Part shown: in pieces, positions 11,569 through 64,000 of the stretch
Layout: every line of letters begins with the position of its first letter
Numbering within the stretch: the first letter of the stretch is position 1
From: an uncultured Gammaproteobacteria bacterium
Lineage (GTDB): Bacteria; Patescibacteriota; Patescibacteriia; Patescibacteriales; GWC2-42-12
NCBI GenBank assembly: GCA_964560005.1
Contig: CAZLKB010000001.1
Location: 221,216 to 285,215 of the forward strand
DNA: 64,000 nt
Reading direction: 5' to 3'
The notes under the pieces: generated by a model
The model's database searches: none
The model's input: only the letters and a program-made list of their open reading frames with translations
What the model was told of the DNA's origin: nothing
Translations under genes and position numbers: made by a program

Positions 11569-11817
11569 ATTTTGAAGGCCGTTTAATATACATTAAACTC
11601 AAACAAAATCGTGGAGCGTGTCTTAGCGGAGAAGATGAGATACATAGGTAACACCTCTAAATCACCTTAGTTGACGGCTTAGATGTAATATATTAGGATA
11701 TTATGATTGTTGTTCATTTAAAACTTATGGGTTGGCTGCGTCTTTTAGGGCGTTTTGCGCTTTAAAAGATGCGGCCAACAACAGAGCTGCAGAAAACAAA
11801 AAGAAAGATTATAACTT

Positions 11818-13074
11818 ATGCCAACACCTAAAGCATCACTGGCTCGTATTGAACGGGCATTGCCGGTAATTCTGAACACCTATGGGACGCCTTGCTACCT
11901 TTATGACGAGCAGGGAATCCTGGAGAGAGGCTTGGAACTTAAGCGCGCCATGCGCGATGTTCCGGGCTTTCAGCAATTCTACGCCGTTAAGGCCTGGAAC
12001 AATCCGGAGAACTTGAGGCTCCAAAAGCAGATGGGCTTCGGGTTTGATTGCTCGTCTCCTTACGAGATGGATTTAATGGAGTGGATCGGCGCTCAAGGTC
12101 GGTTTATTCTAACTTCCAACAACAGCCGGCCGGAATGGTTTGAACAAGCCAATCGCCTGGGCGGCATCATTAACCTGGATGATGTTAGCCTAATTAAGAA
12201 GGTTCGGGATTTTCCCGAATTGATTTGTTTCCGGCTAAATCCGGGCAAGCGACGGACCGGTTCAAGTATCATCGGCACACCCACGGAAGCCAAATATGGC
12301 ATCATGTGGGAGGAGATGGTGAGCGCTTACCAGCAAGCCTGGTACCGCGGAGCCAGACGTTTCGGCATGCACACCATGATCTGCTCAAACTGTCGCGACG
12401 AGGAATATCTGGTCGCAACGGTCGCGATGCTACTTAAGGCTATTGAAAAAGTTACGCGGGCGACCGGGGTTACCTTTGAGTTTATCAATATGGGCGGCGG
12501 ATTTGGCATTCCTTACAAGCTGATCGATAAGGTATTAAACATCAACCGTATCGGTGAACGAATCGCCGAATTGATCCATGATTTCGAAAGAAGTCATGGC
12601 TACGCCCCCAAGCTCTACACCGAGATGGGGCGCTGGATGACCGGTCCCTATGGGGTTCTGGTGACTAAGGTGATCAACCGCAAGGAGATTTATCAGACTC
12701 ATGTGGGCGTGGATGTGGGTATGAACGGACTGATGCGTCATGCTATCTACGGTGCTTATCATCATATCACCGTACCTGGTGTAAGCGCGCGGCGCAGGAA
12801 AGAACGGGTCAATGTGGTCGGTCAGATTTGCGAAAACCGCGATCGCTTGGCAACCCAACGCTTACTGCCCAAGACCGAAGAAGGCGACATTCTCCTGGTT
12901 CAGGACGCGGGGGCTCATGGCTGGGTTATGTGCTTCAACTATAACGGCACCACGCGCGTTCAGGAAGTCATGTTGCGTAAAGATGGCCAGGCGGAATTGA
13001 TTCGCCGGGCCGAGACGCACCACGACTTGAATGCCACACTCGAGTTCAAGCCCAAAACAGCACAGGCGTATTAA
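11818..13074 (+). CDS. PLP-dependent decarboxylase, diaminopimelate decarboxylase-like (Orn/DAP/Arg decarboxylase fold)
   Basis: GTPCYLYDEQ...FYAVKAWNNPENLRL...GFGFDCSSPYEM matches the LysA-type N-terminal barrel pattern. The gene is GC-rich relative to its flanks. Confidence 0.75.
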   Translation: MPTPKASLARIERALPVILNTYGTPCYLYDEQGILERGLELKRAMRDVPGFQQFYAVKAWNNPENLRLQKQMGFGFDCSSPYEMDLMEWIGAQGRFILTSNNSRPEWFEQANRLGGIINLDDVSLIKKVRDFPELICFRLNPGKRRTGSSIIGTPTEAKYGIMWEEMVSAYQQAWYRGARRFGMHTMICSNCRDEEYLVATVAMLLKAIEKVTRATGVTFEFINMGGGFGIPYKLIDKVLNINRIGERIAELIHDFERSHGYAPKLYTEMGRWMTGPYGVLVTKVINRKEIYQTHVGVDVGMNGLMRHAIYGAYHHITVPGVSARRRKERVNVVGQICENRDRLATQRLLPKTEEGDILLVQDAGAHGWVMCFNYNGTTRVQEVMLRKDGQAELIRRAETHHDLNATLEFKPKTAQAY

Positions 13075-13131
13075 CAAAACCATCCGCCTACGCTTTAAGC
13101 TTGGGCGGATAAAAAAAGAAAGACAAAAACA

Positions 13132-14544
13132 ATGAATAAAGAAAATATAACAGTTGATTCAGCGGAACAGCGTTTGATAGATAGTTACGTTGAGCCGGAA
13201 CGGTACTGGCGAAGTATGTTTAGCCCGCAAGTCGGCGGAGTCAAGTTTGACGCTCCGGGCGGAGGCTACTCTTTTCAAATGACTGTTGACGATGAGCGTG
13301 AGAAGGAAAAGGCAAATCGCACTGGCGATCCAGCATCGGCTCTGCTTAAGCTCTCGGTGGCTGACCCGACCTGGAAGATGCCAGAGGGAGCAATGGATGC
13401 CGCGCGCGATTACTTCAATCTGGCCTGGGACGCCAGCCGGTATACGGACACCACTGGCGCTCGCCGGACGGCGTGCACGATAATGACTCGTGATACCAAC
13501 GAGATGCTGGCCGAACTGGTTCAGCGTCTGCGCGGCGCGGCAACCCAGAACGGGAAAGGACTGACGGCCGATTGGGTGCAATACTCGCCGGGCGCGATTA
13601 AGCGGGCACTGGCCGAGTCTATACCGACATTACTGTTTGACCAAAATACAGAGCTCATCTTTCCGACCCCGAGCTACCAGGTGATCACCAGCCCGATGAA
13701 TAGCCGCGGGGTGCCGATTGTTTACTTCCCGCTGGTTTATTGGGGAGGAAAGTGGGCGTTCAAAGTGTTGGAGTTAACCGATTGGGTGACCGCAGCCCAT
13801 AACCGGTCCAAGAAGATCGTGATGTACCTTAATGTGCCTCACAACCCTACGGGCATGGGGTTCACTCTGATAGACTGGCGGATGATCATCGCTTGGGCTA
13901 ACTCTAACAAGGTTACCCTGGTGGTTGACGAGGCCTACATTGACCTCTGCTACCGCGACGGGGTGGTCTCGGTTCTCCAGGTACCGGGCTGGGAAAAGTG
14001 CTGCATCGTGCTCCAGAGCGTGAGCAAGGGCTGGAACGCCACGGGTTTAAGGTTCGGCTGGGTCGTGGCGCACCCTACGGTCATCCAAGCGCTACGCAAG
14101 GTTATGGATGTGAAAGATTCGGGCATGTTCGGCCTGAGCATCGTGGCCGGACTCTACTGCTTGCTTCATCCGGAAGTGGCCCAGGAAACGGTTAAGAAGT
14201 ACCGGATGCTTCATCAGAAACTGGCCGATGGTTTAAAGGCCGCGGGATTTAAAGGCGGCATGCCTGACGCCGGACTCTGCCAGTTCACGCCGGCGCCGAA
14301 AGCGGTGAAGATAGGTCATCTAGGCTTTGACGATGTTCTCAAACCTTTTAAAGATGCGGCCGATTGCGCCAAATGGTTTCGCGAGACATTGCGTATCTCG
14401 GTGATGCACGCAGAAGCCGCGGGCGGTCAATGGCTTCGCTGGGCCGTCACGCTTCAGCCAGTACCCGAATGCGGACTACCGACCGGAGAGTCAATTATTA
14501 ACGAGGTGGTACGGCGCCTCCAGTCTGTGAAATTCACATTCTAA
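13132..14544 (+). CDS. class I/II aminotransferase (DapL-like is only an inference)
   Basis: LNVPHNPTGMGF, VVDEAYIDLCY and SVSKGWNATGLRFGW (PLP-lysine motif). It is GC-rich and follows the decarboxylase by 57 nt. Confidence 0.7.
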   Translation: MNKENITVDSAEQRLIDSYVEPERYWRSMFSPQVGGVKFDAPGGGYSFQMTVDDEREKEKANRTGDPASALLKLSVADPTWKMPEGAMDAARDYFNLAWDASRYTDTTGARRTACTIMTRDTNEMLAELVQRLRGAATQNGKGLTADWVQYSPGAIKRALAESIPTLLFDQNTELIFPTPSYQVITSPMNSRGVPIVYFPLVYWGGKWAFKVLELTDWVTAAHNRSKKIVMYLNVPHNPTGMGFTLIDWRMIIAWANSNKVTLVVDEAYIDLCYRDGVVSVLQVPGWEKCCIVLQSVSKGWNATGLRFGWVVAHPTVIQALRKVMDVKDSGMFGLSIVAGLYCLLHPEVAQETVKKYRMLHQKLADGLKAAGFKGGMPDAGLCQFTPAPKAVKIGHLGFDDVLKPFKDAADCAKWFRETLRISVMHAEAAGGQWLRWAVTLQPVPECGLPTGESIINEVVRRLQSVKFTF

Positions 14545-14693
14545 ACAATGTTCCTTAATATAAGTTGTCGGCGAGCAAGGCCGGCAATTCCAGCGGTTGA
14601 AGACTCACTTCAGCCGCTTTTTTTATATTTTATTAATTCATTTAATAAAAAACACCCGGGAAAAATTAAACCCGGGTGCCTATTTAAAAAATA

Positions 14694-63087: not shown

Positions 63088-63114
63088 TTTTGCCTTTCTT
63101 TTATATTGTTTAAA

Positions 63115-63209
63115 CTCTATGAACCCACCATTTGCCCTCGCGCCAACGCGCGCGCAAATCATGAGTTCAATTGAGAGGGGGAAGCAATTGACCAACAATT
63201 GCCTCCCCC
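63115..63209 (-). repeat. inter-ORF bipartite structured element, copy 4
   Basis: Minus sense: GGGGGAGGCAATTGTTGGTCAATTGCTTCCCCC TCTCAATTGAACTCATGAT [GC hairpin] TGGTGGGTTCATAGAG. Confidence 0.75.
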
Positions 63210-63480
63210 GAAAACCTTTGTGACTATTTTCGTTCGTCACCCGAACGGGGAGTCAGCCGTCCCACGCCTCCAGTGTGTCGGTTTGAGATGTTAGTGAGGA
63301 ACCGTGCCCTGAGATACATAAACTCACTTTTTATCGGTAATATTCAGGGTTGGTGTTAAGCCAACCCAGCGGGCTTCATGTATAAAACCCGAATTTTTCC
63401 ATCGGAAGATTCATTGTCTTCCTTTCTTTTGCCGCCTCTCTCCGCGGCCGAGGGAAGCCTTGTTTTGGAAACGCGTAATG

Positions 63481-64000
63481 TTAGGCAGTCAGTGTCTGGC
63501 AGTATTTTTCCAATCGCCCTGTGTTACGGGGCGTCGGGTTAAGCCTAGTTCGGCGTTTTTGCGCTACAAGCTGTCGCGCGATTAATTGCTTCATTGCCTG
63601 TCGGAGTTCTTCGCCCCGAAGAGTATAGGGGGCCGTTGCCCGAGCTTTTTCTTTCAATGCAGTGTACCTGCCATAGCTCATGCCACCAGGGGCTACTGAG
63701 CTATAGATTGTCGTGCCAGAAGAAATTTCGGCAGTAAAACCGCCGAAGGCATGAAGCCCGCCGAGAAGGCAGCCTTCACCTCCGTCAAACTCGCCTTTGA
63801 CATGAAGGCGGATGCCGGTTTCGCTCGGCTGCGGCCCGCCGAATACGGCCGCTCGTTGCCGCGCCTCAGCAGAATCATCCGCCGAGTAAACTTTAACCTT
63901 TTCCAAGGTACCACTAATTGTACCGTGGCGAGTATCGAGGCGAAATTCATCACCCTCCTCCCATTTCGGGAGAATAAACGTTTCTTCGGCACCACCGTAC
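63481..64000 (-). CDS. hypothetical protein, C-terminal part (ORF enters from the right edge)
   Basis: Hand translation shows the frame is open from 63999: YGGAEETFILPKWEEGDEFRLDTRHGTISGTLEKVKVYSADD... The track start at 63906 is an internal TTG. Confidence 0.5.
   Translation of the reverse strand, partial: YGGAEETFILPKWEEGDEFRLDTRHGTISGTLEKVKVYSADDSAEARQRAAVFGGPQPSETGIRLHVKGEFDGGEGCLLGGLHAFGGFTAEISSGTTIYSSVAPGGMSYGRYTALKEKARATAPYTLRGEELRQAMKQLIARQLVAQKRRTRLNPTPRNTGRLEKYCQTLTA

Follow-up and report, generated by a model that had tools for sequence, protein, structure and literature searches.

Does a compositional mosaic in a bacterial genome come from one foreign donor, from one mode of gene expression, or from several histories? 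The question is raised by a stretch of 64,000 nucleotides (nt) of contig CAZLKB010000001.1, hereafter the window, where eight short GC-rich islets stand among AT-rich blocks and conserved backbone genes, Table 1. According to the original prediction, made from the letters alone, the window has three compositional tiers, most islet genes have a purine-rich leader just before the ATG, and the islets form one coherent gene population with a common donor or a common expression regime. The eight islet positions hold up, and so do the gene labels, as judged from gene GC and Pfam/NCBIfam matches. The best explanation overall, which we favour with slightly more than even confidence, is a core interrupted by accessory cassettes from the gene pool of the Candidate Phyla Radiation (CPR), with Shine-Dalgarno (SD) type leaders and several histories.

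The window covers a variable region of a CPR genome of the Parcubacteria type. By Pfam and NCBIfam its bacterial gene set contains RNase Y, YmdB, RuvC, YebC, bactofilin, RecQ, PheST, TrpS and TsaD. The RNase Y clusters at 90% identity or more with proteins from metagenome-assembled genomes labelled Parcubacteria or Patescibacteria group bacterium, and a scan of species-representative genomes with TsaD returned mostly CPR and a few genomes with other record labels, with a top identity of 70%; a look-up for exact copies of this TsaD gave no match. We compared the window with 80 related TsaD loci (relatives are numbered L###). The syntenic core, GH57-GlgA-RuvC-YebC-PGI ... tRNA-Glu/TsaD and then TrpS-GDH-PGM-bactofilin-Elp3-SHMT-FolD-RecQ-MTase-YmdB-RNaseY, recurs across these loci; its genes have a GC of about 0.44 and AT-rich leaders without an SD site. 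No islet gene is found in the 80 loci, except for a weak match to the B12-radical-SAM gene (24% identity) in L012. The AT-tier genes, including AT-rich block 2, are likewise missing from these neighbourhoods, save for histidine-kinase matches of 25-28% identity in six loci.

TsaD adjoins TrpS in the relatives and is separated from it by 21.5 kb in the window. Islets 1, 6, 7 and 8 and the TsaD-TrpS interval are missing from the orthologous site in close relatives, and some relatives have positional counterparts of islets 2 and 4. L003 (RNase Y 94% identical, nucleotide identity 75-81%) retains the order Elp3-SHMT-FolD-RecQ-MTase-YmdB-RNaseY. At the site of islet 6 L003 has 86 bp, the interval around islet 7 (51711-55124, 3.4 kb) corresponds to 722 bp, and at the position of islet 8 it carries different genes. 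L003 also has an AT-rich insertion of its own (12090-12749): within a locus of GC 0.44, SHMT and FolD are separated by a methyltransferase gene with a GC of 0.33; therefore, compositional insertions at such intergenic sites are not unique to the window genome.

The overall GC of the window is 0.442. In 500-nt windows the standard deviation is 0.062 against a binomial expectation of 0.022, with extremes of 0.278 and 0.622. The values of 55-70% and 20-30% GC in the original prediction are extremes of single lines, too extreme at the scale of a gene or of 1 kb. Per gene, GC forms one broad distribution from 0.31 to 0.59: the listed islet genes lie at 0.48-0.59 (PurS at 0.43), the backbone at 0.40-0.49, and the genes of 18.4-21.2 kb and 24.3-30.1 kb at 0.31-0.39. 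The backbone genes GDH (0.49) and SHMT (0.48) overlap the islet range. The GC distribution is unimodal, and for a Gaussian mixture on gene GC or on GC at third codon positions (GC3) the Bayesian information criterion favours one component; therefore, there are no discrete classes from GC alone, and we rejected them.

The three tiers are recovered by synteny, a criterion independent of GC. The 23 genes that are syntenic with relatives have a GC of 0.435±0.033. Among the 34 genes without synteny GC is bimodal, at 0.31-0.39 and 0.48-0.59, and these genes deviate more strongly from the backbone median (Mann-Whitney p=4e-7). Thus the proposed mosaic stands as a real heterogeneity, with a GC spread beyond chance and differences in codon usage, but not as a set of discrete GC classes. 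Within the window locus the GC spread is 0.063, near the 90th percentile of related loci (median 0.040). The islets are atypical of the host in GC, codon usage and amino-acid usage: GC1 and GC2 are raised along with GC3, and lysine makes up 5.1% of residues compared with 9.4% in the backbone. Among the islets GC3 varies from 0.48 to 0.68, a spread as great as that between islets and backbone. The backbone has, independently of GC, a codon signature in which GCA, ACA and CGT are strongly avoided and GGC, CCG and GCC are preferred; this signature is not present in the accessory genes, whether GC-rich or AT-rich.

All nine leader strings quoted in the original prediction were found in place. AAGAAAG occurs 22 times on the two strands of the window, and seven of these copies start 13-19 nt before an islet ATG; GAGAAAG stands in two further islet leaders. 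Using a mechanical gene call, with AGAAAG sought at positions -24 to -4 and a gene called GC-rich at a relative GC (dGC) of at least +0.03, we found the motif upstream of 7 of the 17 GC-rich genes and of none of the 34 others (Fisher p=1.7e-4), which confirms the proposed leader motif. The islet leaders are rich in A (0.50) and poor in T (0.16-0.22, compared with 0.33-0.38 for other genes).

In two relatives (L018 and L037) the 3' end of the 16S rRNA reads GGATCACCTCCTTTCTA. AGAAAG is the complement of CUUUCU in this tail, and AGAAAGGAGG is the complement of the end ...CCUCCUUUCU. The islet leaders form a series along AGAAAGGAGG, with AGAAAG, AGAAAGG, AGAAAGGA, AAAGGAGGTG, AAGGAG and GGAGG. 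The mean duplex energy with the tail is -7.4 kcal/mol for islet leaders, -3.2 for the backbone and -2.5 for the AT tier (p=2e-4), and 13 of 18 islet leaders reach -6 kcal/mol or lower. With permuted tails of the same composition the islet leaders reach -5.3 and the backbone leaders -3.5 kcal/mol; therefore, the real order of the tail matters for the islets only. The claim that the GC-rich genes are a coherent class with a common leader type is supported.

The spacing agrees with the pairing. In relatives within the clade GGAGG peaks 5-7 nt before the ATG, so that AGAAAG should lie 9-11 nt before it. The gaps observed in the window are 10, 9, 11, 10, 8, 12, 4, 11 and 6 nt, so that seven of nine lie at 8-12 nt, and among the relatives 11 of 36 AGAAAG sites have a gap of 7-12 nt where about 3.3 are expected under an even spread (our own arithmetic from the counts). 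Because the AAAGAAAG leader is complementary to the 16S 3' end and stands in the register predicted from GGAGG, AGAAAG is most likely an upstream-shifted SD site, and it would work as a ribosome-binding site. The first 30 nt of the islet coding sequences have a low GC, 0.37; therefore, these genes are well adapted for initiation. In all three classes the start region has equally little structure, and we rejected the idea that A-rich leaders compensate for structure in GC-rich starts. A leaderless-mRNA regime for the core was also rejected, as a -10 box at a 6-nt gap is present in only about 4% of genes.

Alternatively, AAGAAAG could be recognised by a regulator common to these genes (an RNA-binding protein, a small RNA or a transcription factor), or it could simply belong to an unstructured enhancer rich in A. 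In favour of this, the genes behind the motif are related in function (purine, lysine and cofactor synthesis), their leaders are long and A-rich, and the pairing energy is modest. However, the motif is tightly positioned 8-12 nt before the ATG in the SD register of the clade, it belongs to a continuum along AGAAAGGAGG (AGAAAGGA, AGAAAGG, AAAGGAGGTG, AAGGAG), the real tail binds better than permuted ones, no Rfam family matches, and the motif is also found upstream of unrelated unknown ORFs in islet 8. We therefore regard a role other than ribosome binding as quite improbable. In the Rfam search of the window the tRNAs alone pass the gathering thresholds, with nothing relevant at E<=0.5 upstream of the purine and lysine genes, and a riboswitch or other known RNA in the leaders was rejected.

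The link between GC and SD use extends beyond the window. We surveyed about 1,020 genes from related loci and scored SD-like motifs at -20 to -4, together with an upstream control window. Such motifs precede 14-15% of typical genes (9-11% in the control), 25% of genes at dGC +0.03 to +0.06 and 40% above +0.06 (Fisher p=5e-6), with no trend in the control. SD use also increases with locus GC (rho 0.39, p=0.001), and some GC-rich outlier genes in relatives have AAGAAAGG- or AGAAAGGG-type leaders. SD-led genes are thus concentrated among GC-rich genes. As the rate in typical genes is near background, the clade is largely SD-independent, consistent with the absence of a detectable anti-SD motif reported for about half of Parcubacteria 16S sequences (PMC9297842). 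Of the two options in the original prediction, a common expression regime is therefore the better half, supported by the 16S pairing and by the GC-SD link in relatives.

A common donor is harder to reconcile with the histories of individual islets. The block HD_4 / CofE-MAT-HprK / GT2-AroE-(GFO fusion)-MBL is kept in four other CPR lineages (L086-L090); therefore, window 18468-24987 is one unit, which joins islet 3 with what had been described as AT-rich block 1 and with the gene that opens AT-rich block 2. SD leaders are kept within this cluster, with the motif before CofE and MAT in three lineages. In hosts with a locus GC of 0.35-0.41 the CofE-MAT-HprK trio has a GC of 0.43-0.50 and a GC3 of 0.39-0.51, compared with 0.25-0.40 and 0.19-0.39 in its cluster neighbours. 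Synonymous sites are saturated in trio and neighbours (fourfold-site identity 0.24-0.52, synonymous divergence dS at least 1.3 or not computable) as in the trio alone (0.27-0.47, dS at least 1.4 or not computable); therefore, any import of the islet 3 cluster is older than the split of the lineages. The GC contrast between the trio and its neighbours is either maintained or ameliorating very slowly.

This 6.6-kb cluster (18408-25036) is flanked in the window by a direct repeat of 112 nt. The repeat holds the GKDKGSTF..ELPGQS* end of the histidine kinase and marks a recombination joint, which implies an earlier order HisK-terminator-PurF. We rejected an archaeal origin of the 'archaeal' MAT, which is the usual Patescibacteria MAT (matches at 45-79% identity, nearly all CPR). 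AroE (19167-20026, minus strand) is split into two abutting ORFs of 106 and 179 aa, both in the window and in a separate Logan assembly (L001), and is a single gene of 285-288 aa in relatives (L086, L087, L089). A fusion gene of about 600 aa (AP_endonuc_2/GFO_IDH_MocA), located between AroE and MBL in relatives, is missing in the window, where 27 bp are left. The AT-rich genes of the cluster may be undergoing decay. In one lineage (L087 5804-7096; L088 5152-6549) a gene for a large serine recombinase is found some 1.4 kb away from the cluster, on the side of HD_4, which hints that the cluster can be mobilised.

The junction between the trio and its AT-rich neighbours bears on the possibility of an assembly or binning chimera, i.e. 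a contig that interleaves fragments of two or three populations differing in GC. The source is a metagenome-assembled genome, and the compositional steps coincide with gene boundaries. However, two separate Logan assemblies (SRR12133404 and SRR12133403) are 100% identical over 19229-24188, which spans the junction between the GC-rich trio and AT-rich genes, and this junction recurs in four other lineages from other samples. Moreover, the islets are cassettes of 1-3 kb that lie between syntenic core genes and have their promoters and terminators intact, and the TsaD-PurF arrangement is reproduced in L091. A chimera is therefore extremely unlikely; it is excluded at this one boundary, and the remaining borders rest on the arguments from synteny.

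Islet 1 separates tRNA-Glu from TsaD, two genes that adjoin each other in most relatives; it abuts the tRNA gene, with no att repeat. Its LysA-aminotransferase pair is kept in three GC-rich CPR genomes (L093, L094 and L097, locus GC 0.51-0.60), in each with a different neighbourhood and with a pair GC equal to that of the host. The aminotransferase matches at 61-67% identity are CPR, and its nearest homologues are nearly all from Patescibacteria, with a Poribacteria entry among them. Upstream of its gene (A/T)GAAAG(A/G)A is kept, the leader reading AAGAAAGA, CAGAAAGAAAA, TGAAAGAAA or TGAAAGGAAAA in four lineages. A metagenome scan with the aminotransferase returned two loci only, one of 0.65 GC and not CPR-looking by composition, too few for the question of GC versus host. 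Extra partial copies of the 3' half of tRNA-Glu stand beside the full gene near TsaD in three relatives (L012 6923-7208, L034 9669-9900, L077 9326-9754), the kind of trace left by repeated integration at a tRNA gene; no partial copy was seen in the window.

For islet 2, PurF relatives have identities of 56-60%, and the closest matches are in CPR-like contexts, one of them PurF-RR-PheS-PheT; lower-ranked named matches come from Ratteibacteria, Omnitrophica and Deltaproteobacteria. A distant relative (L091) has PurF and TsaD in exactly the same convergent arrangement. A positional analogue of islet 4 exists in L012, the closest backbone relative, where a radical-SAM gene and a GC-rich TIM-barrel gene lie between TsaD and PheT; the radical-SAM proteins share 24% identity, and the TIM barrels have no detectable similarity.

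If all eight islets were recent imports from one GC-richer, SD-using organism, keeping its composition and ribosome-binding sites, their common composition and leader type would follow. The CPR genomes that carry relatives of LysA-aminotransferase and PurF have a GC of 0.51-0.60, like the islets, and SD use increases with GC across the clade. However, the best identity to any relative is 57-79%, with no near-identical donor found, islet 3 is conserved with AT-rich neighbours in four lineages at saturated dS, and GC3 spans the range given above. The PurF-TsaD arrangement and the islet 4 position are shared with relatives, and the eight islets occupy separate sites with no mobility genes. A single recent donor is thus very unlikely. 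This half of the original prediction is not supported, as the nearest homologues of the three islet proteins searched also come mostly from other Patescibacteria.

The islet genes could also be old residents lost in relatives, whose GC and SD leaders are kept by selection. The trio, which keeps its GC across saturated divergence while its neighbours track the host, speaks for retention, together with the conserved PurF-TsaD adjacency, the initiation regions of low GC, the raised GC1 and GC2 and not GC3 alone, and the gene loss known in CPR lineages (PMC7304191). On the other side, the GC of the LysA-aminotransferase pair is not constant and follows the host in GC-rich lineages (0.54-0.61), and the pair occurs in four different neighbourhoods. 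PurD-like, of the same pathway as PurF, is AT-rich and has no SD, and the core metabolic enzymes GDH, SHMT, PGM and PEPCK lack the leader. Slow amelioration from a very GC-rich ancestor may also still be compatible with the estimates of about 1-1.5 substitutions per site. We find retention alone unlikely, though less so than the other alternatives weighed so far.

The preferred explanation, cassettes with several histories, would work as follows. Accessory units interrupting the core would be drawn mainly from the wider Patescibacteria gene pool, and the GC-rich units are mostly biosynthetic: lysine, purine, the CofE/MAT/HprK-like trio, radical SAM with TIM barrel, and DHOD-like. They have their own signals, each with a sigma-70-like promoter and a long A-rich, T-poor and unstructured leader, whose purine core slides along AGAAAGGAGG, the complement of ...CCUCCUUUCU. 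The AAAGAAAG leader would pair with the terminal CUUUCU 8-12 nt before the ATG, in the aligned register of the GGAGG of operon-internal islet genes. The islets would thus be one class by initiation regime and composition, and several separate histories of arrival or persistence, not a single donor, would lie behind them. For each unit, lateral transfer and not differential loss would account for its presence. Metabolic traits of CPR are known to be patchy through lateral transfer and loss (PMC7304191).

Several points weigh against this explanation. The 16S tail was taken from L018 and L037, and the mature 3' end may differ in the window genome; about half of Parcubacteria 16S sequences have no detectable anti-SD motif (PMC9297842). 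By itself AGAAAG contributes no more than about -6 kcal/mol, a purine-rich leader binds somewhat to whatever tail is rich in pyrimidines, as the permuted control indicates, and 5 of the 18 islet leaders have no real pairing (the TIM barrel, the 113-aa ORF and three islet 8 ORFs). Gene starts in the relatives follow a simple first-ATG rule. The homologue searches, and with them the taxonomic evidence, covered three islet proteins (MAT, aminotransferase and PurF), all from islets 1-3. For most islets an insertion cannot be told from a loss in relatives, and both PurF-TsaD and the islet 4 analogue point to a long stay in the genome. Apart from the repeat of the 6.6-kb cluster, neither an integrase nor an att-type repeat was found at the islets: searches for flanking att-type repeats at islets 1, 2 and 4-8 found none, and the Pfam matches of the window genes include no integrase, transposase or recombinase. 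An integron is not indicated either, since there is no IntI integrase and no repeat family common to cassette ends, and the cassettes are scattered in both orientations. A phage origin of islet 8 or of the TIM barrel was rejected, with no PHROGs match for ten unknown ORFs and no IMG/VR relatives for two queries.

Compared with known systems, the window blocks resemble genomic islands in that they are atypical in composition, missing from syntenic sites in close relatives and patchy across the phylum; a further likeness may lie in one unit that adjoins a tRNA gene and another that is bracketed by direct repeats. They differ in being many cassettes of 1-3 kb instead of one large island, without integrase or transposase, with partners from lineages of the same phylum and with at least one GC-rich block that is old and has kept its composition. 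In Bacillus subtilis, the extended Gram-positive-type SD AGAAAGGAGG pairs with the 16S 3' end CCUCCUUUCU. The relatives have the same tail, and the window motifs are substrings of AGAAAGGAGG in the correct register; unlike in that system, most window leaders use the upstream AGAAAG half without the GGAGG core, and SD pairing is limited to a minority gene class. Bacteroidetes initiate mostly independently of SD and keep the anti-SD. The core leaders here, AT-rich and with SD-like motifs near background (14-15% vs 9-11%), resemble those of such SD-independent genomes and of Parcubacteria lacking the anti-SD (PMC9297842), whereas in this genome the minority of genes led by an SD are the GC-rich accessory or biosynthetic ones. 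In the literature searched we found no description of this link.

As a whole the feature is ordinary: accessory cassettes in a variable CPR region, with a patchiness consistent with PMC7304191. The window has lysine, purine and cofactor genes that the sampled neighbourhoods of close relatives lack and whose homologues are scattered across Patescibacteria; beyond this known pattern, the window adds a signature at the sequence level (GC and leader type) and one explicit recombination joint. Less ordinary are the clean split in initiation signals between core and GC-rich accessory genes, through the upstream half of an extended SD, and a GC-rich trio whose composition has outlasted saturated synonymous divergence. 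The double signature of relative GC-richness and an SD-type leader offers a practical way to recognise CPR metabolic genes that are accessory or move laterally, and it aids the choice of start codons where core genes are SD-less. A compositional 'island' can be old and stable and not a fading import, which calls for caution in GC-based detection of horizontal transfer.

A further idea is that CPR bacteria of this clade have two initiation regimes within one reduced genome, an SD-independent core and a mobile SD-dependent biosynthetic set whose GC and AGAAAG/GGAGG leaders are actively maintained. The trio would be an example: over a divergence of one or more substitutions per synonymous site it has held a GC3 of 0.4-0.5, next to genes of the same cluster at 0.2-0.35. 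We consider it rather unlikely, a little more so than retention alone. If true, it would give minimal cells a simple means to control acquired biosynthetic pathways as a block, by altering the accessibility of the 16S 3' tail.

Table 1. Features of the window, with positions counted from its first nucleotide; leaders and other signals are given where they were located.
Feature	Position	Strand	Content	Leader or other signals
tRNA-Glu	11462-11536	+	Adjoins TsaD in most relatives; 3.95 kb from TsaD in the window	
Islet 1	11818-14544	+	LysA-like decarboxylase 11818-13074, GC 0.52; DapL-like aminotransferase 13132-14544, GC 0.56	AAGAAAG at 11801-11807 (LysA-like) and 13116-13122 (aminotransferase)
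Islet 2	16835-18154	-	PurF, GC 0.51, convergent with TsaD	AAGAAAG at 18166-18172
Direct repeat copy 1	18296-18407	.	Relic: last 17 histidine-kinase codons and terminator; 98/112 positions match copy 2	
AT-rich part of conserved cluster	18468-21167	-	MBL, AroE (two ORFs, split at 19706), GT2; GC 0.33-0.39	AT-rich leaders without SD
Islet 3	21332-24243	-	HprK-like, archaeal-type MAT, CofE-like; GC 0.48-0.51	AAAGGAGGTG (HprK-like); GGAGG (MAT); AAGAAAGGA at 24254-24260 (CofE-like)
HD_4 gene	24364-24987	+	GC 0.31; divergent end gene of conserved cluster	
Direct repeat copy 2	25037-25146	.	Genuine 3' end of histidine-kinase gene (25096-26739) and terminator	
AT-rich block 2	25096-30082	-	Histidine kinase, SET, EamA, PurD-like, 169-aa unknown; GC 0.32-0.39	No SD-like leaders
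Islet 4	30438-33775	+	B12-radical-SAM/DUF4070, GC 0.51; 528-aa AP_endonuc_2-like TIM barrel, GC 0.58	GAGAAAG at 30423-30429 (radical SAM); A-rich leader (TIM barrel)
Islet 5	37136-37836	.	Two small unknown ORFs, 113 aa (+) and 74 aa (-); GC 0.51-0.52	
Islet 6	48479-49544	-	Self-contained DHOD-like cassette; CDS 48526-49443, GC 0.52	Promoter TTGACA-17-TAAGAT 49544-49516; A-rich leader with AAGGAG; terminator 48479-48502
Islet 7	52073-54459	+	PurN-like, PurS, PurM-like	AAGAAAG 52054-52060; GAGAAAG 52768-52774; AAGAAAG 53254-53260
Islet 8	59876-64000	-	Unknown ORF array, GC 0.49-0.59	Four copies of a ~100-nt upstream element; AAGAAAGG leader 63094-63100

The purine genes are scattered over the tiers: PurF, PurN, PurS and PurM-like are GC-rich with SD-type leaders, and PurD-like is AT-rich without SD. 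All of them (16835-18154, 28262-29551 and 52073-54459) match their families with scores close to the cut-off or under it. A complete pur operon in L084 contains a 386-aa PurM that shares 36% identity with the PurM-like protein.

The two ORFs of islet 5 gave no family match. They are followed by an intergenic region of 353 nt upstream of trpS (37837-38189, plus strand) with a GC of 0.49, a predicted fold of -115 kcal/mol and z = -4.6, which terminates in a terminator-like hairpin and a T run and is a candidate trpS attenuator or leader. No Rfam (T-box) match and no conservation in relatives was found for this region.

The four copies of the islet 8 element are on the minus strand (60825-60950, 61188-61310, 61864-61990 and 63088-63210), upstream of transcription units. 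The conserved arms CTCNCNTTGAGTYCRTAATT ... ATTGTGGRTTCATAGAG are predicted to pair round a variable hairpin, with 17 pairs and a few compensatory changes. Two of the ORFs downstream are paralogues (MVLIKCIGGS... and MILIKCIGGP...). Neither the element nor the ORFs have a match in Rfam, Pfam or PHROGs. Directly downstream of one element, on the minus strand, lies a long nested inverted repeat (60526-60826, arms 60526-60549/60803-60826 and 60607-60641/60731-60765), possibly a structured non-coding RNA of about 300 nt; against Rfam it gave only spurious miRNA-type matches.

Three further intergenic repeats were found. The first, of about 150-190 nt and 91-98% identical, is present at 47200-47393 and 51721-51912 as a long near-perfect hairpin (z = -6.3). 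Its copies lie downstream of SHMT and RecQ, hence upstream of folD and purN, and it could be an element similar to miniature inverted-repeat transposable elements or repetitive extragenic palindromes, or a regulatory region shared by two one-carbon/purine genes. A GC-rich repeat, 92-95% identical, is found at 40750-40856 and 57797-57929 with a partial third copy at 54993-55029, and an AT-rich palindrome, about 90% identical, at 3769-3869 and 39306-39406.

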